This document shows, piece by piece, positions 29,229 through 56,847 of a DNA stretch of 64,000 bases (position 1 is the stretch's first letter; the number at the start of each line of letters is the position of its first letter). Source of the DNA: an uncultured Saccharofermentans sp. (lineage in GTDB: Bacteria; Bacillota; Clostridia; Saccharofermentanales; UBA5734); contig OY776634.1 in the NCBI GenBank assembly GCA_963675845.1, positions 2,109,052-2,173,051 on the forward strand, read 5' to 3'. Both the position numbers and the translations under genes were made by a program. The notes beneath the pieces were generated by a model that was not told the DNA's origin, searched no databases, and was given only the letters and a program-made list of their open reading frames with translations.

Positions 29229-29272
29229 AATTAATAATTTGATTTTGACATTTCTTAAGGCGAGAGATTAAT

Positions 29273-33466: not shown

Positions 33467-33665
33467 AACCCAAAGACCAGATATTTGACTTGTCTTGGAT
33501 TATGTCTACGATTAGATTAGATGAGTATAGAGTAAATGAGTAGATCATTGGATATCAAATTGGAGGCTGCACAGACAATTAGAATCAGACTTGAAGTGAA
33601 TAGGCGTCTATTCAGAGGAATGGACAAGTAAAACATGACTATTAAAGTGTTTTTGGTGATGGTTG

Positions 33666-34445: not shown

Positions 34446-34519
34446 GATTCTGATTAATGGCCAGATATTGATCAACTGGTCAGAAAGACTGCTAACGGAG
34501 AAAGAGAGGTTGACTTGCC

Positions 34520-35098: not shown

Positions 35099-35166
35099 CC
35101 TGCAATAGACTGGCAATCAAATTAGCGCTGAATGTGATTAGCTGAATAGAACACTTGCCTTTTCTT

Positions 35167-35194
35167 GAAACCTTCGGATTTTCCGGAGGTTTTC
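35167..35194 (+). terminator. Terminator-like hairpin at the right edge of the island
   Basis: gaaaccttcgg / ccggaggttttc stem (10-11 bp including a G-U), 5-nt loop atttt, with the T-run partly inside the 3' arm. Confidence 0.45.
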
Positions 35195-35353
35195 AATCAA
35201 TCCCAGACCATCAACAATTTTCCGAATCCTTGAAATTTTCCCTAAAGGTTTCTAGGGTATTCACGTAAACCTTTATTGAAGGACATCAAAGATTTGCTTG
35301 CGGTCAAGGGCGCCCGAGACCTCATGGCAAGCCGGCAGTGATTCTTCAATCAA

Positions 35354-35388
35354 GGGCACGGATGCCCGAACAACACATTTCAAGGAGG
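35354..35388 (+). promoter_or_regulatory. Two CsrA-binding-site candidates in the flagellin leader
   Basis: Hairpin GGGCA-CGGA-TGCCC (35354-35367) presents GGA in its loop. A second GGA lies in the Shine-Dalgarno AAGGAGG (35382-35388), 9 nt before the ATG. Confidence 0.65.
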
Positions 35389-35397
35389 AAACATTCC

Positions 35398-36492: not shown

Positions 36493-36532
36493 ATTTCATC
36501 AGCATTCTTGGTTTAATCAGCCAATCGGGCGC

Positions 36533-36561
36533 GGGAAGAGCCGGTCATGCCGGCTCTTCCC
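36533..36561 (+). terminator. Strong hairpin between flagellin and fliD (no U-tract)
   Basis: Perfect 12-bp stem gggaagagccgg / ccggctcttccc with a 5-nt loop, followed by AAAAAA rather than T residues. Confidence 0.4.
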
Positions 36562-36633
36562 AAAAAACCGGACTGCTTGCTTCAAGTTTGCCCAATCCAA
36601 GATCAAGATCCTGCTGAAAGGGGACCCGAAGCC

Positions 36634-38112
36634 ATGAGTTCAGATATGCTCCGCATCACCGGCATTGCGACCGGACTCGATACAGATTCGATTGTTTCCA
36701 GCCTGATCCAGGTTGAACAGATGAAGGTCGACCGTGTTTTCCGCCAGAAGGTCCGGATGGAATGGGAGATGGAGGCCAAGACCGCCGTCAATGACGCGAT
36801 CAAGTCGTTTCGCAACACCACCATGAGCGTGCTGTCGGACCAGAACCTGTATTCGTCCACCGCATTCAACACCTACAAGGTAACCCTGGACTCGGACACC
36901 CGATCTGTCGAGATCAGCGCCGGCGCCAACGCCGAGGCGCAAAGCCATACCATTGACTCGATCACCCGGATCGCCACCGCGTCGGCCGCTGAAAGCACAG
37001 CCCTGTCCACCGGATCCGGTCTGGACAAATCCGCGGCGCTTCAGGACCTGGCTTTATCCACTCCGCTGGTTTTCGGCGGTGCAGAATCCGACGAAATCTC
37101 ATTTTCAATCAACGGCTCCACCTTCACCTTCAACAACACCGATACCCTGGCCGACATGCAAAGCGAGATCAACGCGAGCGACGCGGGCGTCAGGGTCATT
37201 TACAGCGAATTATCCGACAAGCTGACCATCCGTTCAACCGATAAGGGGTCCGGCTCGTCTGTCAATATCACCAACATCACTGGCAACGCCTTCGGCACCG
37301 GCTCGGCCTTCGGGATCGAGACCGGCGACTTTGCAAACGGCCAGGATGCCGTTTTGTCAATTGACGGCTACGCCGTCACCAAGTCCGACAACACCTTCAC
37401 GATCGACGGCCTGACGTATACCCTCAAGGCAGCCTCGGCCGACCCGATCGACTTCGCGGTCGAGCGCGACCTGGACACAGTCGTTGACCGGATCCAGGGT
37501 TTTGTGTCCGAATACAATGACTTGGTCGCCATCCTCCAGACCGCGATTGCCGAAGAGGCGGACAGCGACTTCTATCCGCTGACGCTGGCCGAAAAGGAAG
37601 CGATGAGCGAGGATGAGATCTCATCCTGGGAGATGCGGGCCAAGCTGGGCACGCTGCAAAATGACCGAAACATCCAGAACCTTTTGACCGGCATGCGCCG
37701 CATGCTCTATGACACGGTGTCCGGCACCGGGCTGTCCCTCAACGATATCGGGATCAAGACCATCTCCTATTACGATGGCGCCAAGATCATGCTGGATGAG
37801 ACCCAGCTTCGCGCCAGGCTGACGGATAACCCGGACCAGGTGATGAACCTGTTCATCCAGACATCCGACACCGACACCTACGACGAGATGGGGCACCTGG
37901 CCCGGCTGGGCGATGTGCTGTCAGACTATACCGGCATCTATTCCCGGGCGACGGCCGAACAGGAGATCAGCCGGGTGGCCAACCGGATATCCGATCTGAC
38001 CGAGCGGATGTACGACAAGGAAGACGCCCTGTACAAGAAATACGCCGCGATGGAATCCGCGATCGCGACCTTGAATTCGCAAAGCAGCTGGCTGTCCAGC
38101 CAGTTCCTGTAA
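36634..38112 (+). CDS. fliD: Flagellar filament cap protein FliD
   Basis: ITGIATGLDTDSIVSSLIQVEQMKVDRV N-terminus and C-terminal YKKYAAMESAIATLNSQSSWLSSQF. Confidence 0.93.
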   Translation: MSSDMLRITGIATGLDTDSIVSSLIQVEQMKVDRVFRQKVRMEWEMEAKTAVNDAIKSFRNTTMSVLSDQNLYSSTAFNTYKVTLDSDTRSVEISAGANAEAQSHTIDSITRIATASAAESTALSTGSGLDKSAALQDLALSTPLVFGGAESDEISFSINGSTFTFNNTDTLADMQSEINASDAGVRVIYSELSDKLTIRSTDKGSGSSVNITNITGNAFGTGSAFGIETGDFANGQDAVLSIDGYAVTKSDNTFTIDGLTYTLKAASADPIDFAVERDLDTVVDRIQGFVSEYNDLVAILQTAIAEEADSDFYPLTLAEKEAMSEDEISSWEMRAKLGTLQNDRNIQNLLTGMRRMLYDTVSGTGLSLNDIGIKTISYYDGAKIMLDETQLRARLTDNPDQVMNLFIQTSDTDTYDEMGHLARLGDVLSDYTGIYSRATAEQEISRVANRISDLTERMYDKEDALYKKYAAMESAIATLNSQSSWLSSQFL

Positions 38113-38141
38113 AGAATATTTTGGCAAAGGAGACAGACCCC

Positions 38142-38555
38142 ATGAATCTTGGAAACGGCTACGCCAAATACCGTGAACAGAGCATCCTGACCGCCGGCCC
38201 CGGCGACCTGGTCGTCATGCTCTACGACGGCGCCCTGAAGCAGCTGAGAATCGCGATCGCCGCCCTGGCCGACGATGAGGGCCATCCGAAGAACCCGGAG
38301 CAGGCCAGCCAGGCGCTGATCCGTGCCCAGGACATCATCTGCGAGCTGATCCAGGGGCTGGATTTTAGCTACGAGATCTCGAACGAGCTGCTGGACCTGT
38401 ACGACTACTTCAACCACGAGCTGATCCAGGCCAACATCAAGAAGGACTGCCAGCTGATCGAATCGATCTACGAACTGATCGCGGGGCTGCGCGAGACCTG
38501 GGCCGAAGCGGTGCAGATCTGCCGCAAGGAACAGTCTGTCGCGGTCGGCGGCTGA
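38142..38555 (+). CDS. fliS: Flagellin-specific chaperone FliS
   Basis: YREQSILTAGPGDLVVMLYDGALKQL and LDLYDYFNHELIQANIKKD motifs. AAGGAG before ATG 38142. Confidence 0.9.
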   Translation: MNLGNGYAKYREQSILTAGPGDLVVMLYDGALKQLRIAIAALADDEGHPKNPEQASQALIRAQDIICELIQGLDFSYEISNELLDLYDYFNHELIQANIKKDCQLIESIYELIAGLRETWAEAVQICRKEQSVAVGG

Positions 38556-38565
38556 ACCCAAAGCG

Positions 38566-38898
38566 ATGGATGAGGATCTGAAAAAACTTCAGGCCCTGAC
38601 CGAGCAGGCGATGCTGGCCGTCGACGGCGAGGACATCGCCGGATTGACCGGGCTGATCGCCGAGCGCCAGGCCCAGATGGACCTGATCGACGCCAGGCGC
38701 GCCCAGGGCGAGTGCTTCTCCCGGGACAGCCTGCAGCTGCTCGGGGAACTGGCAGAAACAGACCGCCAGCTGCGCGCCAGGGCGGAGGCGCTGCTCGAAT
38801 CGTATCGGAAAAACCTGCAGATGGTCCGGCGCTTCCAGAAGGTCAAGGGCTACGAGCCCTATACCGATCCGGCACGCCATCTGGATATTCGCGAATAA
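38566..38898 (+). CDS. FliT-like small helical flagellar protein
   Basis: 110-aa helical protein in the fliD-fliS-fliT slot. The assignment is positional only. Confidence 0.5.
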   Translation: MDEDLKKLQALTEQAMLAVDGEDIAGLTGLIAERQAQMDLIDARRAQGECFSRDSLQLLGELAETDRQLRARAEALLESYRKNLQMVRRFQKVKGYEPYTDPARHLDIRE

Positions 38899-38922
38899 CA
38901 AAAACGCTAAGGAGATTGAGAC

Positions 38923-39276
38923 ATGAAAACAGTATTGGTGGTCGACGATGCGGCCTTCATGAGGGTCACGATTAAGAACATGCTGGAGAAAAACGGCTTC
39001 TCGGTCGTCGGTGAAGCCGAAAACGGCCAGGTGGCGGTCAGCAAGTATCACGAGCTCAATCCGGATATTGTCACTATGGATATCACCATGCCGGAGATGG
39101 ACGGGCTTTCGGCCCTGAAGGCGATCATGCAGATTGACGGCCGGGCGACGGTCATCATGATGACAGCGATGGGTCAGCAGGGCATGGTCAAGGAAGCAGT
39201 CATGTCGGGCGCCAAGGGCTTCATTGTCAAGCCCTTCAAGGAAGAGACCGTCGTCGCCGCGCTCGCCAAGCTCTAG
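38923..39276 (+). CDS. cheY: Chemotaxis response regulator CheY
   Basis: 117-aa single receiver domain: VLVVDDAAFMR, phospho-acceptor context IVTMDITMPEMDG, and KGFIVKPF. Confidence 0.95.
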   Translation: MKTVLVVDDAAFMRVTIKNMLEKNGFSVVGEAENGQVAVSKYHELNPDIVTMDITMPEMDGLSALKAIMQIDGRATVIMMTAMGQQGMVKEAVMSGAKGFIVKPFKEETVVAALAKL

Positions 39277-39297
39277 GGCAGATGAGGAGATAAAGAC

Positions 39298-41352
39298 ATG
39301 GCCGACAAGAAAACAGTGAGCCGCGAGCCCATGCTGGAGATGTTCATTTTCGAGACCCAGCAGCTCTTGGAGCAGCTCGAGGACATCCTGATCGAAAGCG
39401 AGAAGATCAACCTCTTATCGACCGAATCGGTGAACGAGGTTTTCCGGATCATGCACACCATCAAGGGCGCAGCCGCCATGATGATGTATGATTCGATCGC
39501 CAGCCTGACCCATGCGGCCGAGGATATCTTCGCCGTCATCCGCCAGGCCGCCAAGCCACTGTCGGACATCTCCGAGCTGGCTGACGCCGTGCTCCAGGTA
39601 TCGGACTTCATCAAGGGCGAGATCGTCGTCATCGAAGACGGTGGCCAGCCGGGGGCCCTGCCGGGTGAGCTGGCTGAACGGCTTAAGGTGCTGCTGGCGC
39701 ACTATGCCAGCGCCAAGCCGGCCACGGACAAAGTTTCCCAGCCCGCGCAGCCGGTATCCGCGCCTCAGGAAGCCAGCCCGCACAAGGCCTGCCCGCCTGA
39801 GCAGAATACGGACGCGGCACGCTTCCGGGCGCGCATGTTCTTCGAGGACGGCTGCCAGATGGAAAACATGCGGGCGTTCACCGTGGTGCACAACCTGAAG
39901 CCCCATGTCTGCGAGCTGAGCTATGAACCGGCGGACATCGATGTCAATGAGAACAGTTCCGGCCAGATCCGGGAAACCGGCTTCAGCCTGACCTTCTGTT
40001 CGGAAGAGGACCCGGAAGTCCTCTATGCGCTTTTGGACCAGACGCTGTTTCTCGAACGCTTGGAATTCGAACAGGATGAACCAGCAATGACCCGTCCGGC
40101 CGATGAACCGCCGGGCCAGCAAAAGGGCGTGCCCCCAACAACGCAGCCCGAAACAGTTGTCTCAACAGCCGCGCCGGTCACAAGCGGCAGGCCGCAGAGC
40201 ATCATCTCGATCAACATCACCAAGCTCGACCAGCTGATGGACCTGGTCGGCGAGCTGGTCATCGCCGAGGCGATGGTGACGCGCAGCCCTGACCTGGACG
40301 GTCTGGAGCTGGACCAGTTCGCCAAGTCCGCCCGGCAGCTGGGCAAGCTGACCGATGAACTGCAGGATATCGCCATGTCGATCCGCATGGTCCCGGTCGC
40401 GCCGACCTTCTCCAAGATGCAGCGCATCATCCGGGATATGAACCGGAAGCTCGGCAAGTCAGTCGAGCTGGTGACGGCCGGCGAAGAGACCGAAATCGAC
40501 AAGAGCATCATCGACCGGCTGTCGGATCCGCTGATGCACCTGATCCGCAACAGCCTCGACCACGGGATCGAAACGCCCGAAGCGCGGCGCAAGGCCGGCA
40601 AGCCGGATAAGGGGACTGTCCGCCTGGAAGCCAAAAATTCCGGCGGCGATGTCTGGATCACGATCCGGGATGACGGCAAGGGCCTGGACCGTGACAAGAT
40701 CCTGGACAAGGCGCGGCGCCAGAACCTGCTCAAGAAGCCGGCCGAGGACTATACCGACAAGGAGATCTACAGTTTCATCTTGCTGCCCGGATTCTCGACC
40801 AAGGAGGAGGTCTCGGAGTTTTCCGGCCGCGGCGTCGGCATGGACGTGGTCCGGGAGAACATCGAGCAGGTCGGCGGCCAGATCAGCCTGGACAGCCAGG
40901 CCGGACAGGGCACTACCATCTCGATTCGCATCCCGCTGACCCTGGCGATCCTGCAGGGCATGCATGTCAAGGTCGGACAGACCAGCTTCATCATTCCGAC
41001 CACCACCATCCGCGAGACCTTCCGCGCCAAGCCGGAGCAGGTCATCCATGACACCGAAGGCCACGAGATGATGATGATCCGGGGCGAATGCTTCTCGATC
41101 AGCCGGCTGCACCAGCATTTCAACCTCGAGCCCAAGGTCGAAAGCCTGACTGACGGCATCATCGTCGTGGTCGAGGATTCGGACCGTGCGCTGTGCCTGT
41201 TCGCGGACGAGCTTCTGGGCGAGCAGCAGGTCGTGGTCAAGCCGCTGCCGGCCTATATCAAGAAAGCCAAAAGCCTGGCCGGATGCACCATCCTCGGGGA
41301 TGGATCCATCAGCCTGATACTCGATATCCGTGATTTGACTGAGAACCACTAG
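39298..41352 (+). CDS. cheA: Chemotaxis histidine kinase CheA
   Basis: Hpt motif FRIMHTIKGAAAMM, dimerisation and HATPase regions (HLIRNSLDHGIE, GRGVGMDVV), and a C-terminal CheW-like domain. Confidence 0.97.
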   Translation: MADKKTVSREPMLEMFIFETQQLLEQLEDILIESEKINLLSTESVNEVFRIMHTIKGAAAMMMYDSIASLTHAAEDIFAVIRQAAKPLSDISELADAVLQVSDFIKGEIVVIEDGGQPGALPGELAERLKVLLAHYASAKPATDKVSQPAQPVSAPQEASPHKACPPEQNTDAARFRARMFFEDGCQMENMRAFTVVHNLKPHVCELSYEPADIDVNENSSGQIRETGFSLTFCSEEDPEVLYALLDQTLFLERLEFEQDEPAMTRPADEPPGQQKGVPPTTQPETVVSTAAPVTSGRPQSIISINITKLDQLMDLVGELVIAEAMVTRSPDLDGLELDQFAKSARQLGKLTDELQDIAMSIRMVPVAPTFSKMQRIIRDMNRKLGKSVELVTAGEETEIDKSIIDRLSDPLMHLIRNSLDHGIETPEARRKAGKPDKGTVRLEAKNSGGDVWITIRDDGKGLDRDKILDKARRQNLLKKPAEDYTDKEIYSFILLPGFSTKEEVSEFSGRGVGMDVVRENIEQVGGQISLDSQAGQGTTISIRIPLTLAILQGMHVKVGQTSFIIPTTTIRETFRAKPEQVIHDTEGHEMMMIRGECFSISRLHQHFNLEPKVESLTDGIIVVVEDSDRALCLFADELLGEQQVVVKPLPAYIKKAKSLAGCTILGDGSISLILDIRDLTENH

Positions 41353-46119: not shown

Positions 46120-47871
46120 TTGAACATGACGATGCAGCCCGAAATCAATCAGCAGAGCCTGGCTAAAATTCTGGAGGATGTCCTTTTGCATGCCCGGGAT
46201 GTCGTCTTCTGCTGGTCGAAGCGGGATGTGTCCAGGCACCTGGCCTGCAGCGGCAGCATCCGGGATGTCCTGGGGTTTTTGCCAAGCGAGATCGCGTCCC
46301 CCGGCGACTTCGGCGACAATGTCTATTACGCCGACAAGGCCAAGGTCCAGGATGCCCTGCGCGACATCCAGACCGGCGAGGAGGAGCCGCGGCTTGTCGA
46401 GCACCGTCTGATCACCGGCTCAGGCGACATCCGCTGGGTCCGGACCTGTGTCCGCCAGATCCTGCCGGACTGGCTGGGCCATGAGCTGATCGTCCTGACC
46501 GTGACCGACATCGACGAGGAGAAGCGCTACAAGAACCGGCTCCGCGAGAAGACCTACCGCGACCCCCTGACTGGCCTGCCCAACCGGGCCATGCTCGAGT
46601 ACAAGCTCCAGGCGTTCATGGAGTCGGTACAGCGCAACGGCAAGCACCTGGCGCTGATCCACCTCGACCTCGATAACTTCAAGACCTTCAACGAGCAGTA
46701 CGGCTACGGCTTCGGCGACGGGATCCTCAGGCAGATCGGCGATGTTCTGCTGGCCGAACTCCCGGTCGATACCGCGGTCTTCCGGGTCGGCGGCGATGAA
46801 TTCATGCTGCTGATCAAGAACCTCGACAACCGGACCGATCTTGAGCAGATCATGCAGAACATCATGAACTGCCTGAAGTCATCGATCGACGAGCAGGGCC
46901 AACAGGTCACCATCCAGGCCTCGGCCGGCATCGCGATCTACCCGGATGACTCGGACAATACGGACGACGTGCAGAACAACGCCATGATCGCCTTGAAGAA
47001 GGCCAAGGAGCACGGCACCGGCCACTGGTGCTACTTCAACCCGATCCTCAAGGTCGACCAGATTCGGAGAGCCGATCTCGAGAAGCGGCTGCGCCGCGCG
47101 ATCGACCAGCGCGAGTTCTACCTGGTCTACCAGCCGCAGCTGGATACGCTCACGCAGCAGATCTCCGGCATCGAGGCCCTGATCCGCTGGAACGATCCGG
47201 AGCACGGCCTGGTCTCGCCGGCGGATTTCATCCCGCTGGCGGAAAGTTGCGGCCTGATGATCCCGATCGGGGCATTTGTCCTGGAGACGGCTTGCCTGCA
47301 GCAGATCAACTGGATTGCCCAGGGCATCCCGGTCGTGCCGATTGCCGTCAACATCTCGACCGACCAGATCCGCGATCCGCATTTCTTCCCCAACCTGAGA
47401 AGAACCCTGGCCAAGACCGGCCTGCCGCCGGAGCTTCTGGAGCTGGAGATCACTGAGAGCCTGTTTCTGGAGTCCTCCGACATTGTGCGCGAGCTGTTTG
47501 CCAAGATCCGGAGCCTGGGCATCCGCATCGCGCTGGACGATTTCGGCTCCGGCTATTCCTCATTGACCTACCTCAAGAACTTCCAGCTCGACCGCCTGAA
47601 GATCGACCGCACCTTCATCCGCGACATGAAGCTCGAATCGGTCGAAACCGCGATCACCGGCACCATTGTCACGCTGGCTCATATCCTGGAGCTGGATGTC
47701 GTCGCCGAAGGCGTGGAGACCAAAGAGCAGTATGACTACCTGAAGAAGGTCGGCTGCAACAACGTGCAGGGGTATTTCTTCCACAGGCCGCTGTCTGAGC
47801 CAAAGATCCAGCGGCTGTTGAAAACTCAGCCGCTCTTGGAGCAGACCGTCCGCAAGAGGAAGAAACGATGA
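46120..47871 (+). CDS. PAS-GGDEF-EAL c-di-GMP turnover protein
   Basis: RVGGDEFMLLI (no RxxD I-site upstream). The EAL domain carries EALIRW, DDFGSGYSSL and the EGVET motif. ATG 46126 is an alternative start. Confidence 0.93.
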   Translation: MNMTMQPEINQQSLAKILEDVLLHARDVVFCWSKRDVSRHLACSGSIRDVLGFLPSEIASPGDFGDNVYYADKAKVQDALRDIQTGEEEPRLVEHRLITGSGDIRWVRTCVRQILPDWLGHELIVLTVTDIDEEKRYKNRLREKTYRDPLTGLPNRAMLEYKLQAFMESVQRNGKHLALIHLDLDNFKTFNEQYGYGFGDGILRQIGDVLLAELPVDTAVFRVGGDEFMLLIKNLDNRTDLEQIMQNIMNCLKSSIDEQGQQVTIQASAGIAIYPDDSDNTDDVQNNAMIALKKAKEHGTGHWCYFNPILKVDQIRRADLEKRLRRAIDQREFYLVYQPQLDTLTQQISGIEALIRWNDPEHGLVSPADFIPLAESCGLMIPIGAFVLETACLQQINWIAQGIPVVPIAVNISTDQIRDPHFFPNLRRTLAKTGLPPELLELEITESLFLESSDIVRELFAKIRSLGIRIALDDFGSGYSSLTYLKNFQLDRLKIDRTFIRDMKLESVETAITGTIVTLAHILELDVVAEGVETKEQYDYLKKVGCNNVQGYFFHRPLSEPKIQRLLKTQPLLEQTVRKRKKR

Positions 47872-48572
47872 AGCAGCAAGACATCTCAATCGGCACACGC
47901 CTCGAGATCTGGCCGCTGACCGAGCTGTCGGAGCATGAGCCCCAACCGGCAGCGACCTTGGTCAGCCAGGTGATCGAGGGCGGGCAGAACCAGACGATGA
48001 GCATCGCGATCCCGAGCCGCGGCGCCAATCTGGTCACCTGGCCGCTCGGTCAGCGATTCCGGATGGCTTTCACCGAGCCCAATCAGTGCTGCTGGACGCT
48101 GGACGGCGAGATCGAAGAGCAGATCGTCATCGACAAGGTGCGATGCTACAGAATCGCCATCCAGGGTGAGCCGGTCCGCCAGCAGCGAAGAGACTGGTTT
48201 CGGCTGCCGGTCAGCCTGGCCATGTCATTCAGGTTTCACGAGGCAAAAGATACGGACCGGGACGCGGCGCAGCAGCCGGAGGAAGATATCCCGGCCTTTT
48301 CCGGCATGACCCGCGACATCTCAGGCGGCGGCGCATCGTTTGTCACAGACATGAAGCGGCTGGACTGCAAACTTTTGGATATTGAAATTCCGTTAAGATC
48401 CGACCGCGTGATCCGGGCCAAGGGACATATTGTCCGAAAGGAAGTCCTGAACGAGCAGCCCAGGCGCTCCCACATCGCGATCCAGTTCACCGAAATCTCC
48501 CGCGGCGACCAGGATGACCTGGTGCGCTTCGTGTTTCGCGAGCAGGTGAGAGCCCGCAAGGTCGGCGGGTAG
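47868..48572 (+). CDS. PilZ-domain c-di-GMP receptor (YcgR/MotI-like flagellar brake candidate)
   Basis: QQRRDWFRLP (RxxxR) and TRDISGGGASF (D/NxSxxG). The start overlaps the GGDEF-EAL stop (ATGA). Confidence 0.85.
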   Translation: MKQQDISIGTRLEIWPLTELSEHEPQPAATLVSQVIEGGQNQTMSIAIPSRGANLVTWPLGQRFRMAFTEPNQCCWTLDGEIEEQIVIDKVRCYRIAIQGEPVRQQRRDWFRLPVSLAMSFRFHEAKDTDRDAAQQPEEDIPAFSGMTRDISGGGASFVTDMKRLDCKLLDIEIPLRSDRVIRAKGHIVRKEVLNEQPRRSHIAIQFTEISRGDQDDLVRFVFREQVRARKVGG

Positions 48573-48670
48573 GGCGGTTGTCAAACAGGGCGGAAAAACG
48601 GGAGACACAAGGAAAACTGGATTGGTAAACAGTAATATTCTGGTTAAAAAGACATGGGATACTTTGCAGT

Positions 48671-48724
48671 TTGACTACAAATTTAGTCAATCAATTGACA
48701 ATCAAAGTAATTGAGTCATACAAT
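48671..48724 (+). promoter_or_regulatory. Sigma-A promoter with an adjacent palindromic operator-like site upstream of capD
   Basis: TTGACTA-caaatt-TAGTCAA palindrome (48671-48690), then TTGACA (48695-48700), 18-nt spacer, TACAAT (48719-48724). Confidence 0.6.
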
Positions 48725-48831
48725 GGGGTCTGAATAGGGTTTAGTCGGGCCTTGATAAAGGATGGCAAGGCTGGCAATCCCAAATCCAGGGAAAACTCAA
48801 TTTTGATATGCTTGTCATCAAAGGATAGGAA

Positions 48832-50796
48832 GTGTCACCGTTGAAGCATTTAGGTCAAAACCGCAGGATTCCGATTTCAAGAAGGCTGTTGCCGATCTTT
48901 GATTTTCTGATTCTGCTTTTTTCAATTGTTGTCTCGTTCTGGCTCGCCTACGGCGATGTCAAGTGGCCCCGGCTGGGCGAGGTCTTTCTCCAGATTATCT
49001 TCCCCTCCGCGATCTGCGGCCTGATCATCTTCGAGTTTATCGGGCTGTACCGCCAGCTCTGGCGGTTTGCCACCATTCTCCAGTACATCTACCTGGCTGC
49101 CGGCACGCTGCTGCAGACCACATTCTACTACCTGATCGGCTTGCTGTTCCCCAATCCGCCGCGGCACGGCTACTATGTCGTCTTCTGGATGACCAGCTTC
49201 ATCCTGATGACCGCGCTCCGCGTCGCCTACCGGATTATCTTCAACTATGAGCTGTATCACCTTGCCAAGGCGTATCATCGCTTCAGGGCGAGATTTCACA
49301 ACCGCCGCGCGAAGGAGAATCTGACAAGGGTTTTGATCATCGGGGCGTCGCGCACGGCCAGCAAGATCATCCGCGAGATGCGCGAGACGAGATCCGGCTA
49401 CCTGCCGGTCGCGATCATCGACGACGACCGCGAAAAGCTCGACTGCTCCGTCATGAACGTGCCGGTCATCGGCGACCGCAGACACCTCTATGAGGCGGTC
49501 GACAAGTACAGCATCCAGGAAGTGATCATGGCGATCCCCAACGCCGAGCACAATGTGATCATCGACTACACCGAGATGTGCCGCTTGATCAATGTCAAGC
49601 TCAAGATCATGCCGGGCATCCAGGACCTGATCGACGGCAAGATCAGCCTCGACATGATCAAGGACGTCGCGATTGAAGACCTGCTGGGCCGCCAGGAGAT
49701 CGAGTTCGACGACGAGGGCCATACCGTATACCTCAAGGACAAGGTCGTGCTGGTTACCGGCGGCGGCGGATCGATCGGATCCGAGCTCTGCCGCCAGATC
49801 GCCAAGGCCGGGCCGAAGCGGCTGATCATCTTCGATATCTACGAGAACAACGCCTTTTCGCTTCAGCACGAGCTGCTGGCCAGCCACAAGGATGGTCTGG
49901 ATCTTAAGATCCTGATCGGGTCGGTGCGCGACACGCATCGCCTGGATGAAGTCTTCGCGCAGCACAAGCCGGACATCGTGTTCCACGCCGCCGCGCACAA
50001 GCACGTCCCCCTGATGGAGGACAGCCCGGGCGAGGCGGTCAAGAACAACATCGGCGGCACCTACAACGTCGCGGACGCGGCCGGCAAGTTCAAGTGTGAG
50101 CGCTTCGTCCTGATCTCAACCGACAAGGCGGTCAACCCGACCAACAAGATGGGCGCGACCAAGCGTATCGCCGAGATGGTGATCCAGACTATGAACCGGG
50201 TCCATCCGCACACCCAGTACACGGCCGTGCGTTTCGGCAATGTCCTGGGCTCCAACGGCTCGGTGATCCCGATCTTCAAGGAGCAGATCCGCCGCGACCG
50301 GAAAATTACAGTCACCCATCCGGACATCACAAGATTCTTCATGACCATTCCGGAAGCCTCCAGGCTGGTGATCAAGGCCGGCTCGTACAAAGCCCAGGAC
50401 AGAGACGACAGCCATACGTATGTTCTCGACATGGGCGAGCCCGTCAAGATCCTGGATCTGGCCAAGGCCCTGATCCTCCTGTCCGGCCTGGAAGTGGACC
50501 GCGACGTCAAGATCGAGTTCACAGGCCTCAGACCCGGCGAGAAGATGTACGAAGAGCTGTTCTACGACAAAGAAGACATGACCAGAACGGAAAACGAGAA
50601 AATCTTCAAGATCAAGCCGGGGTACGATCCGACCAAACTGATCACTGAGCTCGAAGAACTCCAGTCCCTGATCGGCTGGATGAACCCGGAGTTCGACCGG
50701 ATCACCATCTGGATTTTAGAACACCAGGCCAAGCCGCAGATCACCATGAAGCCGGTCACCAAAAAGTCCAACAAGATCCTGGCGGAAATCTCATGA
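48832..50796 (+). CDS. Membrane-anchored polysaccharide biosynthesis protein CapD/EpsC/PglF family (NDP-sugar 4,6-dehydratase/epimerase)
   Basis: Four N-terminal TM helices and two Rossmann segments (RVLIIGASRTASKII; VLVTGGGGSIGSELCRQI). 654 aa. GTG start. Confidence 0.9.
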   Translation: MSPLKHLGQNRRIPISRRLLPIFDFLILLFSIVVSFWLAYGDVKWPRLGEVFLQIIFPSAICGLIIFEFIGLYRQLWRFATILQYIYLAAGTLLQTTFYYLIGLLFPNPPRHGYYVVFWMTSFILMTALRVAYRIIFNYELYHLAKAYHRFRARFHNRRAKENLTRVLIIGASRTASKIIREMRETRSGYLPVAIIDDDREKLDCSVMNVPVIGDRRHLYEAVDKYSIQEVIMAIPNAEHNVIIDYTEMCRLINVKLKIMPGIQDLIDGKISLDMIKDVAIEDLLGRQEIEFDDEGHTVYLKDKVVLVTGGGGSIGSELCRQIAKAGPKRLIIFDIYENNAFSLQHELLASHKDGLDLKILIGSVRDTHRLDEVFAQHKPDIVFHAAAHKHVPLMEDSPGEAVKNNIGGTYNVADAAGKFKCERFVLISTDKAVNPTNKMGATKRIAEMVIQTMNRVHPHTQYTAVRFGNVLGSNGSVIPIFKEQIRRDRKITVTHPDITRFFMTIPEASRLVIKAGSYKAQDRDDSHTYVLDMGEPVKILDLAKALILLSGLEVDRDVKIEFTGLRPGEKMYEELFYDKEDMTRTENEKIFKIKPGYDPTKLITELEELQSLIGWMNPEFDRITIWILEHQAKPQITMKPVTKKSNKILAEIS

Positions 50797-51356
50797 CGAC
50801 AACCCCTCAAAAATCCTTCTGCCTCTTTTGCCGCACCGGTCAGGAGCAGGCCATCGCCGATCGGATCAACGAGGAATACACCCAACTCCAGGCGATCGCC
50901 CCGACCAAGGTGCTGCCGGAAAAGCTCAAAGGACAATGGCGAAACCGACCCAAGACCTTGCTCCCGGGCTACATCTTCCTCTACACGGACGATGAGGTCC
51001 CCCACGACCTCAGACACAAGACCAACCATACCTACAGACTACTGGAGTACGAAAGAGGCGTCAGGACCCTCATAGGGCCGGACGCCGACTATGCCATGTG
51101 GCTCCTCCGCCACCAGGGACAGATCCAGCCGTCCAGGATCCTGGCCATCGGGGAGCACGTGAAGGTCATCGACGGCCCGCTCATGGACTTCCAGGGCAGG
51201 ATCAAGAAGATGGACAGGCACAAGCGACGCATCTGGGTCGAATTCGACTTCGACAGCCAAAAACGCACCATATCCATCGGGGCGGAATACCTCTCAGACC
51301 CCAAACAGGCCGACCCGTTCCAAAGACAAATAACAAGCACCATCCCCCAAATGTAA
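50793..51356 (+). CDS. NusG-paralog transcription antiterminator (LoaP/UpxY-like)
   Basis: NGN-like N-terminal half (FCLFCRTGQEQAIADRI...LPGYIFLY) and a KOW motif (GEHVKVIDGPLMDFQGRIKKMD). The start overlaps the capD stop. Lies inside a glycan locus. Confidence 0.75.
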   Translation: MTTTPQKSFCLFCRTGQEQAIADRINEEYTQLQAIAPTKVLPEKLKGQWRNRPKTLLPGYIFLYTDDEVPHDLRHKTNHTYRLLEYERGVRTLIGPDADYAMWLLRHQGQIQPSRILAIGEHVKVIDGPLMDFQGRIKKMDRHKRRIWVEFDFDSQKRTISIGAEYLSDPKQADPFQRQITSTIPQM

Positions 51357-51459
51357 ACATTACACAACAAGGCTTGCGAGCCCAAAGCAAAAAGGGGTAG
51401 AATAACAACAGTGTTCAAAAATTGAACACGACAGAACAACACAACCCAGAGGTGAAAAC

Positions 51460-52029
51460 ATGACACCCGACCAACCCACCGAACAGGACAAGGATCTGAT
51501 CATCCTGACCGAAATCGAGGCCAACCAGGACATCTCGCAGCGCGAGCTGGCCAAACGGACCGGCCTCTCTTTGGGTTCGGTCAATATTCTCCTCAAAAAG
51601 ATGGCAAGAGAAGGCCTCATTAAGATGGAGTCCATTCCGGCCAACCGGGTCATCTACATGCTAACCCCCATGGGCATCGCCGAAAAGGCGGCCAAGACCA
51701 TCCGCTACATCCGCCACCACTACAAAATGATCCAACAGACCGAGAACCAGATCGCCGATCAGATCCGGAAATATAGCAAGTCCAACAAGATCGTCTACCT
51801 GGTTGAACCCGAAGGGGAACTGGCAGACCTGTTACAGGGCGCACTTGAGACCTGCAGACAGGAAAATCTCAATACGCCGATTGTCATGATCCGCCCGGAC
51901 GAGGCACTCAAGCAAGATAACCTCGAACACAAGGACAATGCCGTCATCCTCTACCTGCCGGATGACTACTTGACCAAAAGCCGACAGCAGGCTACCAGCA
52001 TCCCGATGCACAGCCTACTGGGTAACTAA
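51460..52029 (+). CDS. Winged-helix (MarR-like) EPS-associated transcriptional regulator
   Basis: wHTH segment ISQRELAKRTGLSLGSVNILLKKMAREGLIK. The N-terminal domain resembles EPS-associated MarR regulators. The C-terminal half is unknown. Confidence 0.65.
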   Translation: MTPDQPTEQDKDLIILTEIEANQDISQRELAKRTGLSLGSVNILLKKMAREGLIKMESIPANRVIYMLTPMGIAEKAAKTIRYIRHHYKMIQQTENQIADQIRKYSKSNKIVYLVEPEGELADLLQGALETCRQENLNTPIVMIRPDEALKQDNLEHKDNAVILYLPDDYLTKSRQQATSIPMHSLLGN

Positions 52030-52090
52030 AAGACACAGCTCCTAACCTTCTGATCTGACGCCTGCGTGCGCAAAGAGGAGGGGTGGGATA

Positions 52091-52147
52091 CAGACAGGGC
52101 CTGGCCAACCGAGCAGCTATTCTGCTCGGTTGGCCAGGCCCTGTCTG
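52091..52147 (+). terminator. 26-bp perfect hairpin at the high-GC/low-GC junction
   Basis: cagacagggcctggccaaccgagcag (52091-52116), loop ctatt, exact reverse complement (52122-52147), then ggtttc. It lies 60 nt after the regulator stop. Confidence 0.6.
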
Positions 52148-52447
52148 GGTTTCAAGAAAGATGACGGGTGAGTTTGGGGGATTGGGTATTGCTTGTTGGA
52201 GGGTAAGGCGTGAAGTTAGCGGTGATATTTTGAGCGTAGCACACCTATTGCAAGTTTGTGCGATAGGCACAGACTGTCACTGTTTCTGGGTTAGACACAG
52301 TGGTGAGGCACTTGAGCAAAGTGAATCGATTGATGCGATGAACGAATTTGACTGATATAGGACTAAAGTACGACGGTAAGAAAGTCAGCAAGATGAAAAC
52401 TTGCAAAATAGCATAAACAACGAACAAACAAGGTAGGTTGGGATTAG

Positions 52448-52798
52448 ATGATAATGAATGGACGTCGAGGTTTTACGTTAATTGAGCTTATCGCAGTTAT
52501 TGCGATTCTCGGAATTCTAGCAAGTATTATTAGTTTAGCTATTTCAGGGTTCGTAAAATCGAGCAGACAGCGAGTGTGTGAAATCAACAGCATACAGATT
52601 GAAAAGTTGTATGGTGCGGAGCTTGCCCTAACGGGGGCTGATCATTCAGACAGCCTGTTTAATCAATTTGTTGAACAATATGGTGACTGCTGTCCGACTG
52701 GCGGGTTGTATTCATTCGTTGACAATAGCGTTGTCTGCAGTATCCATACTGAAGAATCTGTAGGTGAGTCTGAAGTTGAGGGAGTTCCGTATTTGTAA
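52448..52798 (+). CDS. Orphan prepilin-type (type IV pilin/pseudopilin-like) protein
   Basis: MIMNGRRG|FTLIELIAVIAILGILASII is a class III signal peptide with a G-FTLIE cleavage/methylation motif. 116 aa. Cysteines lie in the C-terminal part (DCCPTGG, VCSIH). Confidence 0.8.
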   Translation: MIMNGRRGFTLIELIAVIAILGILASIISLAISGFVKSSRQRVCEINSIQIEKLYGAELALTGADHSDSLFNQFVEQYGDCCPTGGLYSFVDNSVVCSIHTEESVGESEVEGVPYL

Positions 52799-52915
52799 GA
52801 ATTTGGTTCGGTTATAGACAAGGGTAGTCGTGCTATAAAATCTTCAACCGAAGTATTGTGATCATTGAAGATGCATGAGAGAGGATCTGGTAGTTTTGTG
52901 TTTGAGTGGATTAGA

Positions 52916-53480
52916 CGACGTGAGTATCTTGAAAGAATGAAAACACAATATATTGTGGCTCAAAAATATTTGACTACCATATGTTGCATAAAACACATCC
53001 TTTCACCATAATCGGGCGCGACGTGAGTATGCTCTTAGAATAACTATATATAGTAGGTTTAAAAATTCGGAACACAATATGTAGAAACGAAAAACTGTAA
53101 TTTGTAATTAACTCGAAAAGATAATTACAGGCTTAAGGCCAGTAAAATCAAGGCTTTCAGAGATTTTGTAATTTGTAATTAAGAATTCGCCAAACTTTTT
53201 ATGTATTTAACGCCGATTCGACGTGAGTATGGTGAAAAGATAACAAGATATAGTATAGAACGAGAGTTCGCATACAATATGCTGCATAGGCATTTTTCAA
53301 AAAAGTGGTAGATAGAAAATCATCGACCACCGCTGAAAGTCAGTAAAATCAAGGGTTTCAGAAGATGGTGGTAGATGGTGGTCGATAAAAACACAAACTT
53401 TTATGTATTTAAGACCCAATCGACGTGAGTATGGTGAAAGGATAAAGAGGCTGTAAGGCAGTGGTAGCAAGGGTTTTAGA
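52916..53480 (+). repeat. Tandem modular repeat array in the leader of the glycan cassette
   Basis: The anchor cgacgtgagtat occurs at 52916, 53019, 53219 and 53421 (spacings 103, 200, 202). The core cagtaaaatcaagg[c/g]tttcaga is at 53140 and 53341, with a degenerate copy at 53459. Unit-specific words are tgtaatttgtaattaa (53096, 53167) and ggtggt-type (53305, 53363-53386). Confidence 0.9.
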
Positions 53481-53653
53481 GGTTGATATATCAGGGTGAA
53501 TGTTACAGTAGCATTACACGTAGTCTCATCCAATCAAAACATAGAATTATGCAATATATAGTGCTTGAAATCAATCAAATCACTACATATAGATCAAAAA
53601 ATAAGGTGTTCTATACACCTCAAACATACATAAACAAAGCAGGAGGAACTATC

Positions 53654-54304
53654 ATGGTTTACTTAAAAATCAAAAGATTAATAGATATCATACTTTCAAC
53701 ACTCGGACTTATCATTCTATCTCCTGTTTTTTTAGTACTCATTATAGCAATCAAGATTGACTCCCCTGGACCTGTTCTCTTTAAACAGAAAAGAGTTGGG
53801 ATTCATAAGAGTCATTTTCATATATTGAAGTTTAGAACCATGAGAATTGATACGCCTAAGGACACGCCAACACATTTATTAGAGAATCCGGATCAGTGGA
53901 TTACGAAGGTAGGTAAATTCCTACGTAAAACATCTCTGGACGAGCTACCTCAAATCATCAATATCTTTAAGGGTGAGATGAGTATCATTGGTCCAAGACC
54001 TGCGCTTTGGAATCAGTATGACCTGATTGAAGAAAGAGACAAGTATCATGCTAATGACGTGCCGGTTGGGCTTACAGGCTGGGCGCAGATTAATGGTAGG
54101 GACGAATTGCCTATAGAAGAAAAGTCTAGGTTGGATGGGGAATACGTTAAAAAAAGAAGTCTTTGGTTTGACCTTATATGTTTCATAGGGACTTTTACAG
54201 CTGTTCTTAAGAGCAAAGGTGTCATCGAAGGTGGAACTGGAGTTATTGCAAAGATGACTAAAGATAAAGAAGAGAAAAAAGGTTCGAGTCATTCCAACTT
54301 ATAA
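53654..54304 (+). CDS. Initiating sugar transferase (small PglC/WbaP-C-type polyprenyl-phosphate glycosyl-1-phosphate transferase)
   Basis: KRLIDIILSTLGLIILSPVFLVLIIAIKIDSPGPVLFKQKRVG...DELPQIINIFKGEMSIIGPRPA. AGGAGG lies before ATG 53654. The track ORF start (53483) is upstream. Confidence 0.92.
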   Translation: MVYLKIKRLIDIILSTLGLIILSPVFLVLIIAIKIDSPGPVLFKQKRVGIHKSHFHILKFRTMRIDTPKDTPTHLLENPDQWITKVGKFLRKTSLDELPQIINIFKGEMSIIGPRPALWNQYDLIEERDKYHANDVPVGLTGWAQINGRDELPIEEKSRLDGEYVKKRSLWFDLICFIGTFTAVLKSKGVIEGGTGVIAKMTKDKEEKKGSSHSNL

Positions 54305-54315
54305 GAGGTGAAACG

Positions 54316-55179
54316 ATGAAGCGAGTTCTAATTACCGGAAAAAAAAGTTACATAGGTACATCTCTTGAGAATTGGCTCAAGAGAGAACCTGATAAATATA
54401 AAGTAGATACGGTTGATATGAAAGATGGATCATGGAAAGAGAAAGACTTCGGTTCATATGATGTCGTGTTTCATGTGGCTGGGATAGCACACGTTTCATC
54501 TGATCCAAAGATGGAAGACCTCTACTATAAGGTAAATAGAGATCTAACGATTGAAACTGCTGAGAAGGCCAAGGCAGAAGGTGTAAAGCAGTTCATTTTT
54601 ATGAGCAGCATTATTGTTTATGGTGACAGCAGCAGTAGCAAGCGAGTTATAGATAGAAATACAGTTCCTACGCCAAGTAACTTTTATGGAAATAGTAAGC
54701 TACAGGCTGAGGAAGGTATTAAGCATTTAGAAACTGATGAGTTCATGATTGTGGTGCTAAGACCACCAATGATATATGGAAAAGGATCTAAAGGGAACTA
54801 TCCTAGGTTGGCAAACATGGCTAAGAAGATACCGATATTTCCTAACATCGATAATGAGCGCAGCATGCTTCATATAGATAATCTTTGTGAGTTCATTAAG
54901 GTAATGATTGATCATGAAGAGACAGGGCTTTATTTCCCGCAGAACAAAGAGTATGTGAAGACCAGTGAATTGGTAAAGACGATAGCAGAAGTTCATGGGA
55001 AGAAGATAATGATGACGGAGGTATTTAATCCTGTGTTGAGGTTGATGTTTAGTATTGGAATTGTGAATAAGGTATTCGGCAATTTGGTTTATGAGAAGTC
55101 CATGAGTGACTATGATAAGGCGAATTACCGAATAAGAGATTTTAGAGAATCTATTGAGTTGACGGAGAGTAGGGATTAA
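54316..55179 (+). CDS. NAD-dependent sugar epimerase/dehydratase family protein
   Basis: N-terminal Rossmann VLITGKKSYIGTSL and catalytic YxxxK (YGNSK). 287 aa. Confidence 0.85.
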   Translation: MKRVLITGKKSYIGTSLENWLKREPDKYKVDTVDMKDGSWKEKDFGSYDVVFHVAGIAHVSSDPKMEDLYYKVNRDLTIETAEKAKAEGVKQFIFMSSIIVYGDSSSSKRVIDRNTVPTPSNFYGNSKLQAEEGIKHLETDEFMIVVLRPPMIYGKGSKGNYPRLANMAKKIPIFPNIDNERSMLHIDNLCEFIKVMIDHEETGLYFPQNKEYVKTSELVKTIAEVHGKKIMMTEVFNPVLRLMFSIGIVNKVFGNLVYEKSMSDYDKANYRIRDFRESIELTESRD

Positions 55180-55181
55180 AT

Positions 55182-56276
55182 ATGGCAAAGAAGGTTCTAA
55201 TTTTGGTGAACCATGATGTGGTAATTTACAATTTTAGAAAAGAGTTAGTTGGGAGACTATTATCCGATGGAAACCAAGTTGTTATTTCTTCACCTTATGG
55301 TGAGAGGATTGATGATTTAGTTGAAATGGGATGTAAGTATATTGAAGCAAAAATTGAACGTCATGGTACAAACCCTCTCAATGAGCTTAAACTTATGAGT
55401 TATTATAAGAAAATTATGAGAGATATAAAACCTGATGTTGTTTTGACTTATACAATTAAACCCAATATTTATGGTGGTTTAGCTGCTAAAAAATATGGAA
55501 TCCCTTATATTGCCAACATAACCGGGTTAGGGACAGCTGTTGAGAAAAAAAGCCTCATGCAGCAAATTACTATTATTCTGTACAAATTAGCTTTCTCAAA
55601 TATTCAAAGAGTGTTTTTTCAGAATACAGAAAACATGAAGTTTTTCAGAGACAACAATATCGTAGTTAATAAGCATAGATTAGTGCCTGGTTCGGGTGTT
55701 AATTTGGATCATTATCAAGTATTAGACTATCCACCTGAAGATACAACAGAGTTTGTTTTTATTTCAAGAATTATGAAAGAAAAAGGCATTGATCAGTACA
55801 TAGAGGCAGCAGAATACATCACTAAGAAGTATCCAAATACCAAATTTCATGTGTGTGGATTTTGCGAAGAAGCCTATGAAGATATTCTAAGTGATTTGCA
55901 AAACAAAAATATTCTCACTTATCATGGAATGATTAGAGATATTAGAGATATATTAATGAAAGCCCACTGTACGATTCATCCAACATACTATCCTGAGGGG
56001 TTATCAAATGTACTACTTGAAAGTGCTGCAAGTGGAAGACCAATTATTACTACAGACAGAAGCGGGTGTAGAGAAGTTGTTGATCAAGGAATTAACGGAT
56101 TCATGATCAAACAGAAGGATAGTAATGATTTAATTGAAAAAGTGGAAAGTTTTTTGAAATTAAGTATTGAAGAAAAAAGGCAGATGGGCTTAGCAGGGAG
56201 AGCTAAGGTTGAAGCTGAATTTGATAGACAGATTGTTGTGGATGCATATATTGATGAAATAAATAAAACTAATTAG
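55182..56276 (+). CDS. Glycosyltransferase family 4 (GT-B)
   Basis: EX7E motif EGLSNVLLESAASGRPIITTDRSGCREVV. 364 aa. Confidence 0.88.
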   Translation: MAKKVLILVNHDVVIYNFRKELVGRLLSDGNQVVISSPYGERIDDLVEMGCKYIEAKIERHGTNPLNELKLMSYYKKIMRDIKPDVVLTYTIKPNIYGGLAAKKYGIPYIANITGLGTAVEKKSLMQQITIILYKLAFSNIQRVFFQNTENMKFFRDNNIVVNKHRLVPGSGVNLDHYQVLDYPPEDTTEFVFISRIMKEKGIDQYIEAAEYITKKYPNTKFHVCGFCEEAYEDILSDLQNKNILTYHGMIRDIRDILMKAHCTIHPTYYPEGLSNVLLESAASGRPIITTDRSGCREVVDQGINGFMIKQKDSNDLIEKVESFLKLSIEEKRQMGLAGRAKVEAEFDRQIVVDAYIDEINKTN

Positions 56277-56292
56277 ATGACTGAGGTGTGAA

Positions 56293-56847
56293 ATGAAAAA
56301 ATATATTAGAGCTTTTATATGCTTAACATACTCACTAATCAAATTTTCAACAATTAAAATTTTTCATTTTAAAGGTTTTACTTTCACAATATATAGCATA
56401 TTTTCACCTTTAACACAGATTGACTTAGGTAAGAATTCACAATTGAAATTATCAAAAATTGTTAAAGCTAGAAGCGGAGTGAAGTTGAAAGTTAGAGATG
56501 GTGCTAAATTGGATATTGGACAAGGAACCTCATTTAATCATGGGTGTATGGTAGTTAGCCACGATGAAATAAAAATTGGTGAAAATGTTCAATTCGGACC
56601 CAATGTACTAATTTATGATCATGACCACGATTTCAGAACACAGAATGGATTGAAAAATTTAAAATATTTAAGTTCCCCAGTGTCTATAGGTAATAACGTT
56701 TGGGTAGGTGCTAATGTTGTTATTTTAAGAGGAACAGTAATTGGAGATAATTGTGTGATAGGAGCGGGTACAGTTATTAAAGGTAATTTTGAAAATGACA
56801 CAATAGTGACTAATCATAGAGAAGTAAAATGCAAAAAAATCAATTGA
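56293..56847 (+). CDS. Hexapeptide-repeat (LbH) acetyltransferase
   Basis: Left-handed beta-helix repeats IGNNVWVGANVVILRGTVIGDNCVIGAGTVI. 184 aa. Confidence 0.85.
   Translation: MKKYIRAFICLTYSLIKFSTIKIFHFKGFTFTIYSIFSPLTQIDLGKNSQLKLSKIVKARSGVKLKVRDGAKLDIGQGTSFNHGCMVVSHDEIKIGENVQFGPNVLIYDHDHDFRTQNGLKNLKYLSSPVSIGNNVWVGANVVILRGTVIGDNCVIGAGTVIKGNFENDTIVTNHREVKCKKIN

Follow-up and report, generated by a model that had tools for sequence, protein, structure and literature searches.

A tandemly amplified leader element with a covarying helix upstream of a glycan operon in an uncultured Saccharofermentans

Leaders of polysaccharide operons serve as loading sites of specialised NusG paralogs (RfaH, UpxY, LoaP), and few such signals are known, almost none of them from Clostridia. 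Here we describe a 0.85-kb intergenic gap (52799-53653) in a 64,000-nucleotide stretch of the genome of an uncultured Saccharofermentans sp. (contig OY776634.1; the whole stretch is called the window), which lies between a regulatory block of LoaP-like, helix-turn-helix (HTH) and pilin-like genes and the wbqP-like transferase gene that opens a glycan operon. The gap does not have the character of a random spacer; it is a real, uncatalogued and conserved leader element in amplified form, built of tandem modules with a covarying helix.

The RfaH ops/JUMPstart and the Bacteroides opsX elements are short non-template-strand leader signals of polysaccharide operons that act with a specialised NusG paralog (PMC11685472). 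In the dfn and mln leaders of Bacillus velezensis, a leader RNA hairpin has been proposed to recruit LoaP; this target is a small hairpin with a UNCG tetraloop, behind which a NusA-dependent terminator is located (PMC12691694). In Bacillales, the eps-associated RNA (EAR) is a cis-acting non-coding element located between the early and the biosynthetic genes of an exopolysaccharide operon and is thought to act on the elongating polymerase (Irnov & Winkler 2010, cited in PMC12691694).

The modules share with EAR the cis-acting position inside a polysaccharide operon, but EAR is single-copy and the Rfam search gave no sequence or structure match to it, whereas the modules are tandemly amplified with a NusG paralog nearby. 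The 12-nt anchor that heads each module keeps the C-GNNA-G layout of a possible mini-hairpin and the following TG step of RfaH ops and opsX, but it lacks their pause hairpin at 10-16 nt and their G at -10, and the canonical-looking ops-like site in these loci is a different one, GGCGAAGCYRTG. To our knowledge, ops sites have not been found in tandem arrays. Like the LoaP leader, the module places a leader RNA hairpin beside a LoaP-type gene; however, neither the UNCG hairpin nor the terminator of LoaP is found in the modules, and the window protein scores below the cut-off of the LoaP model. A conserved core in a covarying helix and an upstream segment able to compete for one arm recall riboswitches and attenuators, but the expression platform of those systems was not found in the module and serial copies would be unusual for them. 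Pneumococcal BOX elements are also modular, with variable tandem sub-units forming hairpins in intergenic DNA, but are dispersed genome-wide, whereas only one locus type carries the modules, in a single orientation. We regard the element as a variant of the polysaccharide-operon leader signals for specialised NusG paralogs, neither an addressing system nor a small RNA (sRNA) pair, and give about an even chance to its being an amplified cis-regulatory leader RNA that acts on elongation together with the NusG paralog.

Repeat units of the gap and their single-copy relatives

The anchor CGACGTGAGTAT occurs exactly four times in the 64 kb (52916, 53019, 53219 and 53421), always on the + strand, compared with a chance expectation of 0.17, and 0 of 100 shuffles reached four copies. 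The 22-nt core CAGTAAAATCAAGGSTTTCAGA is present only at 53140 and 53341 (expected 0), and a third copy at 53450-53480 is 68% identical. Around the core each full unit carries its own words in three regions, R1, R2 and R3. These repeats were first proposed in a sequence-only reading of the window, the coordinates of which all hold in the sequence. The gap is laid out as follows.

52916-53018, + strand: half unit 0, with anchor 52916-52927, a P1 hairpin at about 52946-52987 (-13.5 kcal/mol, z -3.5) and a 17-nt 'anti-anchor' 52997-53013
53019-53218, + strand: full unit 1, word class TGTAATT, with anchor 53019-53030, P1 hairpin 53044-53084, R1 53096-53111, R2 53119-53129, core 53140-53161, R3 53167-53182 and junction block 53192-53218
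53219-53420, + strand: full unit 2, word class GGTGGT, with anchor 53219-53230, P1 hairpin with GAGA loop 53248-53280, R1 53305-53313, R2 53322-53331, core 53341-53362, R3 (doubled word) 53363-53386 and junction 53396-53420
53421-53653, + strand: terminal unit, which is the conserved single-copy leader, with anchor 53421-53432, core-like hairpin 53450-53480, AATGTTACAG..CATTACAC hairpin at about 53502-53519, TTATGCAATATATAGT box 53551-53566, GGTGT..ACACC hairpin 53602-53622, and Shine-Dalgarno (SD) sequence 53641-53647, the start codon coming next at 53654

For comparison, 45 related loci (L numbers below) were collected by four routes, namely species genomes encoding LoaP-like proteins, metagenomes matching a DNA pattern of two anchors, contigs with LoaP-like homologs, and contigs with close transferase homologs; the exact anchor and core words were absent from the 20 LoaP-based genome loci, and sensitive blastn and nhmmer were needed for detection. 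In L036 and L038-L043, the wbqP-like transferase gene is immediately preceded by one ~235-nt leader. This leader comprises the anchor, the core hairpin, smaller hairpins with boxes, and the SD, and shares 77-81% identity with window 53421-53653 over ~235 nt; the terminal leader is partly conserved in L010 and L030 as well. Among the single-copy loci, the first 60 nt of the leader (anchor plus core) are 92-97% identical versus 75-87% for the adjacent gene, and the whole leader is conserved above the third codon positions of that gene. Because the conservation exceeds that of the neighbouring gene, anchor plus core is read as the selected unit, and, judged from these identities, is under strong purifying selection in the single-copy loci. 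By the same sequence comparison, the ancestral form is one ~235-nt leader upstream of the wbqP-like gene, usually after a small pilin-like gene.

Copy number among the relatives is 1, 2, or 3 and more, reaching 8 in a related form of ~100-nt sub-units, and the ~200-bp units of the window are therefore interpreted as local amplifications. Besides the window, which has 2 plus a half, full ~200-bp units were found only in L030 (3), in L042 (a full and a partial one, with a RhuM-family gene at L042:2466-3476 interrupting the array) and in L027 (1). The arrays of L004-L008, L019 and L025-L034 consist of 2-8 copies of ~100-nt A/B sub-units with the anchor CCGTGAGTATGG or CGACGTGATTATG and a shared GACCACAATATGTAG box, and sit upstream of the LoaP-like gene and also upstream of glycan genes; since L027 joins both kinds in a single array, window-type and A/B units are one family. 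Anchors are co-directional with the flanking genes in all ~30 loci. Directly 5' of the anchor arrays in relatives sits the pilin-like gene, the arrays typically starting right after it, and remnants of its 3'-end (TTGATTGGATG) are found just before anchors in L010, L035, L036, L041 and L042, recurring at the unit junction in L042. This array start and the L042 junction remnants argue that the modules are local amplifications of an intra-operon leader.

The gap had been divided by the sequence-only reading into two full units with a half unit before and a truncated third after them. The repeats are real, but the arrangement is better read as a conserved single-copy leader (53421-53653) standing after amplified copies of its own 5' part. 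A further division of each 200-bp unit into two homologous ~100-nt halves found no support, as global alignment against shuffles gave z ~0 and the similarities were short and local (ATCGAC; GTGGTNNATAAAAAC). Consensus folding of the terminal leader yielded weak structure with one covarying pair, and a 6-bp closing helix GACGUG/CACGUC is proposed tentatively.

Two further observations concern the units. The terminal-unit core at the ancestral position (53459-53480) is further from the family consensus than the cores 53140-53161 and 53341-53362, which would fit relaxed constraint after duplication. The anti-anchor, ATCCTTTCACCATAATC, is complementary to the 3' extension of anchor 4 (53427-53443, 94%) and of anchor 3 (53225-53241, 88%), so that a long-range RNA helix is conceivable, as is a role as inverted repeat on either side of units 1-2; the anti-anchor is window-specific and missing at the homologous position of L035.

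The word-swapped helix around the core

Within the units, the conserved blocks remain 87-89% identical while the words are replaced wholesale. Unit 1 contains the 16-nt TGTAATTTGTAATTAA twice without mismatch, in direct orientation at 53096 and 53167, and an inverted copy of its word lies at 53119-53129; in unit 2, ATCGACCACC (53322-53331) and GGTGGTCGAT (53377-53386) are 100% complementary, and AGATGGTGGT is tandemly doubled. The spacings noted earlier for units 1 and 2 (19 and 17 nt from R1 to R2; 52 and 55 nt from R2 to R3) are correct, and the word period is 7 versus 10 nt. R1 and R2 together make palindromes of 26-27 bp. No trans targets of the words were found elsewhere in the window.

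Pairing is unit-specific, in that the cognate R2:R3 and R1:R2 duplexes are several-fold stabler than cross-unit combinations. R2 of unit 1 pairs with its own R3 at -8.2 and with its own R1 at -8.1 kcal/mol, versus -2.9 to -3.6 kcal/mol with GGTGGT-type partners; correspondingly, R2 of the GGTGGT type pairs with its own R3 at -11 to -21 kcal/mol (-16 to -21 in five intact units), versus -1.4 to -3.8 kcal/mol with R3 of unit 1. The unit 2 hairpin folds at -25.8 kcal/mol (z -5.4), and a z of -2.9 was also obtained for this unit.

Of the eight full hairpins, six (from the window, L030 and L042) have GGTGGT as their word, TGTAATT occurs in window unit 1 alone, and L027 has GTAGTC. A covariance model built only from GGTGGT-type hairpins, comprising R2:R3 and the inner CUGAAA/UUUCAG helix, recovered window unit 1 over its full length (23.7 bits) and found the third class in L027 (R1 ATGTAGTCTGACTAC, R2 ATCGACTACAG, R3 TTGTAGTCTGAGTAG), where two C:G pairs of the GGTGGT type have become U:A and A:U and R1 changes in parallel. 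Over R2:R3 and the inner helix, 90% of cells pair versus 25-48% with slid partners, and four pairs are altered on both sides, values reached by only 1-15 of 500 shuffles in a test that comprises eight full hairpins of three word classes in an alignment fitted to the model. L042 has two C-to-U changes preserving G-U wobble pairs. These comparisons support an R2:R3 helix around the core, and the suggestion that a stem enclosing the conserved core keeps its complementarity across sequence change is borne out, with three word classes and four double-sided pairs.

R1 copies R3 in every class, so that a competing R1:R2 hairpin is possible. It would be strongest in unit 1, with 10 bp, of moderate strength in unit 2 and L027, and weak in L030, with 5 bp. 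The two mutually exclusive pairings of R2 that had been suggested can accordingly be drawn for all three word classes. The identity of R1 and R3 could have come about through gene conversion between nearby repeats.

Gene conversion is also part of an explanation without function, in which the array is a neutral repeat resembling a variable number tandem repeat, arisen by unequal recombination or slippage between anchors, and the complementarity stems not from selection but from mutation, through templated correction of quasi-palindromes and short-patch conversion acting on R1 and R3. Copy number does differ among close relatives, the words are themselves tandemly doubled, R1 and R3 of unit 1 are exact 16-nt repeats, the terminal core is the most diverged copy in the window, and the units have a mosaic make-up, with a likeness to L030_c in the first 40 nt of unit 1 and to L030 in the second half of unit 2. 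This explanation is nevertheless opposed by the strong purifying selection read from the single-copy anchor and core, by the three-part word layout kept in three classes from different organisms, and by conserved blocks that stay so similar despite wholesale word replacement; we consider it unlikely, though still deserving weight.

A DNA operator array was considered as well, in which the R1/R2 inverted repeat (5-11 nt spacer) and the doubled R3 words bind a dimeric regulator, e.g. the adjacent MarR_EPS-type HTH protein, with the recurring CAAKATRTAG boxes as further sites. Such an array is favoured by the R1-R2 palindromes, by the HTH gene that accompanies the LoaP-like gene in the window, L001, L006, L021, L024, L041 and L044, and by perfect palindromes such as TTATGCAAGATATTGCATAA in the related sub-units. 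However, the words are unrelated and differ in period, yet there is a single HTH gene; the palindrome half-sites are not conserved between units; the box spacing varies (29, 32 and 41 nt); and the wobble-keeping substitutions of L042, together with the compensatory changes, fit single-strand pairing better than protein recognition. An operator array is thus judged improbable. Address-specific protein sites, as raised by the sequence-only reading, are not supported: of the six full units in relatives, five (three in L030 and two in L042) share the GGTGGT of unit 2, L027 has GTAGTC, and the word periods are 7 and 10 nt.

In the leader RNA interpretation, the gap would be transcribed as the leader that links the regulatory block to the opening gene of the glycan operon. 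Its basic unit would be the 12-nt anchor and, after it, a hairpin whose apical core is conserved, and the 5' part of this leader would have been tandemly amplified in this genome. In the amplified copies, the basal helix R2:R3 would close the core hairpin, its sequence being free provided that pairing is kept, and R1, an upstream direct copy of the 3' arm, may transiently capture R2 during transcription. The nascent RNA could then aid pausing, loading or anti-termination by acting, together with the NusG paralog, on the elongating RNA polymerase, where the anchor would serve as a pause or ops-like signal and extra copies may raise the chance of engagement. A more specific and rather doubtful version is that the module is an undescribed co-transcriptional RNA/DNA device for NusG paralogs of Clostridia, in which R1 holds R2 until R3 is made, the closed hairpin shows its loop to the paralog or polymerase near the ops-like anchor, and copy number tunes expression of the glycan operon. 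With natural variants of 1 to 8 copies, this locus type offers a ready-made dosage series.

Expression signals, the NusG paralog and ops-like sites

The genes and signals around the gap are the following.

47868-48572: PilZ gene
48695-48724: best sigma-70-like promoter of the locus, TTGACA-18-TACAAT
48832-50796: CapD-like Polysacc_synt_2 gene
50793-51356, + strand: LoaP-like NusG paralog with NusG and KOW domains, best-scoring family antiterm_LoaP
51460-52029: MarR_EPS-like HTH gene
52448-52798, + strand: small pilin-like gene with a prepilin N-terminal methylation (N_methyl) motif
53654-54304, + strand: wbqP-like priming sugar transferase gene (Bac_transf), the first gene of the AT-rich glycan operon

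The strongest promoter-like site of the locus (48695-48724) lies upstream of the whole block. Neither a good promoter nor a + strand terminator was found in 52800-53653, so the units have no promoter or terminator of their own, and no terminator after R3, SD sequestration or conserved open reading frame was detected, the SD being >250 nt from the full units. A paralogous sRNA pair, the second idea of the sequence-only reading, is abandoned on these grounds and on the finding that the units arose by amplification of an operon leader that is single-copy in relatives. Searches with Rfam 15 returned nothing relevant at E up to 10 in 50000-56000 and no gathering-score match in the region or 12 related loci, in agreement with the earlier reading, which recognised no known riboswitch or leader family in the motif; literature searches for the motif strings gave unrelated matches only.

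Three further readings of the signals were tried and rejected. A leader peptide across the junction (ATGTATTTAA...) has no SD and differs in frame and stop between the window and L030. A sigma-70 promoter per unit with the anchor as -10 has no conserved -35, the TTGACA/ATGACA spacing varying (18, 28 and 31 nt). Sigma-54, Spo0A-box and CsrA (GGA) readings of the anchor, made by eye, were inconsistent across copies. The GGTGT..ACACC hairpin of the terminal leader (53602-53622; also in L036, L038, L041 and L042) lies ~30 nt before the SD with an A-run preceding it; its stem is conserved, its loops differ, and its minus strand has the form of an intrinsic terminator, which may stop antisense transcription from the AT-rich operon.

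As to the NusG paralog, the 50793-51356 protein scored 113.9 bits with NCBIfam NF033641 (antiterm_LoaP), under the cut-off of 125. The modules have the location of a polysaccharide-operon leader, lie on the sense strand and occur with a NusG paralog in the genome. The proposal that they are leader targets of this LoaP-like protein is loosely supported: they do stand beside LoaP-like genes and upstream of glycan operons, but they track the transferase and pilin-like genes more closely, and the UNCG hairpin and terminator of LoaP are absent, no UNCG hairpin with a stem of at least 4 bp occurring in 52800-53653. A UNCG-tetraloop hairpin GGCTTGCGAGCC is located at 51371-51382, between the LoaP-like stop and the HTH start codons, and is not conserved in 23 other LoaP-homolog loci.

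Several results weigh against a leader RNA acting with the NusG paralog. The association of the modules with the LoaP-like gene is looser than with the wbqP-like transferase and pilin-like genes, and they are present also in loci with no LoaP-like gene in the recovered sequence (L025, L034, L035, L038 and L042). No expression platform (terminator, SD sequestration) accounts for the output of a switch, and transcription through the gap is deduced from gene order. The nearest hairpin (R2-core-R3) ends 42-48 nt upstream of the anchors, versus 10-16 nt at GGCGAAGCYRTG, and the proposed C:G closing pair is disrupted in the B-type anchors found in relatives (CGTGATTATG). In 9 of 10 comparisons the + strand gives the slightly better hairpin fold, which speaks for the leader RNA, but this bias may stem from G>C skew, with z-scores alike on both strands; once composition was controlled, folding strand asymmetry did not discriminate RNA from DNA. 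To these is added the small and model-fitted alignment behind the helix test.

Could the anchors alone be true ops-type recruitment sites in the non-template DNA for the LoaP-like paralog, with the hairpins as irrelevant passengers? Aligned as G-ACGTGAGT-ATG with the RfaH ops G-GCGGTAGC-GTG, the anchor shares the C-GNNA-G layout, the T11-G12 step and 7 of 12 positions, with covariation of positions 2 and 9. In L005 (1473), L019 (11015), L025, L027 (406), L028 and L033, the sub-unit closest to the glycan genes has it fused to GCGAAGC as CTGCGAAGCCGTGAGTATGG, and GCGAAGC is the hairpin of Bacteroides opsE (PMC11685472). The anchor-type leader also occupies the place, immediately before the transferase gene, that GGCGAAGCYRTG takes where the pilin-like gene is missing. 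All this is offset by the lack of a pause hairpin at 10-16 nt, by an anchor G at -10 that is not conserved, by an ambiguous alignment with two possible registers, and by the broken closing pair of the B-type anchors, so we hold it to be quite unlikely that the anchors work in this way.

A better candidate than the modules for a NusG-paralog recruitment site is GGCGAAGCYRTG with its hairpin. GGCGAAGCYRTG lies on the sense strand directly downstream of LoaP-like (or LoaP-like plus HTH) genes in 14 of the first 24 loci, and L021-L023 carry a one-base variant (TATA for TATG). In 14/14 loci tested, its predicted pause U is preceded by an RNA hairpin, unrelated in sequence between loci, at a distance of 10-16 nt (mode 13-14), as in hairpin-stabilised pauses and in Bacteroides opsX. 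Taken together with the doubtful device model above, this would mean that a LoaP-like clade of Firmicutes uses ops-style recruitment, as RfaH and UpxY do, rather than a UNCG RNA hairpin; if confirmed, an ops-like site beside LoaP-like genes would blur the split between RNA-recruited LoaP and DNA-recruited RfaH/UpxY. Elements of the GGCGAAGCYRTG type were observed in L003-L008, L010, L013-L015, L018-L020, L024 and L041 (e.g. L015:1225-1335; L006:11180-11299); they are ops-like, carry GCGAAGC, have conserved ATCATCGCC..GGCGTG and GCATAGC blocks upstream, and have no Rfam entry. The window holds an atypical copy.

52060-52180, + strand: diverged window copy of the LoaP-adjacent element, with GCGTGCGCA 52066-52074, a perfect 26-bp hairpin 52091-52148, and an anchor-like GACGGGTGAGTTTGG 52163-52177 in place of GGCGAAGCYRTG

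Here the anchor-like GACGGGTGAGTTTGG follows the 26-bp hairpin at a distance of 22 nt. This GC-rich hairpin (52091-52148) gives spurious microRNA-like Rfam matches and occupies the position of the short pause hairpin of the relatives.

Mobile DNA and the surrounding locus

Independent sRNA genes, a remnant of a miniature inverted-repeat transposable element or insertion sequence, and an invertible promoter switch acting through the inverted repeat 52997-53013 / 53427-53443 were weighed together, and two observations speak for such readings: the inverted 17-nt repeat is 94% complementary and flanks 413 bp, and the modular tandem structure recalls the pneumococcal BOX elements. However, independent sRNA genes are opposed by the units having neither promoter nor terminator. 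The rest of the 64-kb window and the 20-kb flanks of the relatives contain no further copies, the modules being confined to one locus type, and plasmids and phages gave no match, so that a mobile-element origin is disfavoured. As for an inverton, no good promoter lies between the repeats, the left arm is not conserved in L035, no relative has an inverted arrangement, and no recombinase is present among the genes scanned (window 47868-56847 and 26551-41352). Taken as a group, these explanations are very improbable.

L038 (1-3521) and L040 have a large serine recombinase and an Abi_2 gene upstream of the leader, and these, with the RhuM insertion in L042, place the operon in mobile contexts in some hosts. 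The genome has ~60% GC and the glycan operon from 53.6 kb onward only 26-39%; from 53654 it encodes the wbqP-like priming sugar transferase, an epimerase and glycosyltransferases, and homologs of the transferase at 80-98% identity occur in many Clostridia. We regard the glycan operon as horizontally spread. Exact-sequence look-ups of the window proteins and a viral-contig scan gave no match.

The prepilin-type gene (window 52448-52798; also in L007, L008, L025, L029, L032, L034, L035 and L041) is a fixed member of the glycan locus. A c-di-GMP-I (cyclic di-GMP) riboswitch at window 3145-3229 (68 bits) and the PilZ-domain gene 47868-48572 directly upstream of the glycan locus hint at control of the region by c-di-GMP. 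A second AT-rich island, at window 27000-35000 with 32-45% GC, contains VanZ-like, surface Ig-like and AbiEii toxin genes, is adjoined by flagellin and FliD genes, and is probably acquired DNA.

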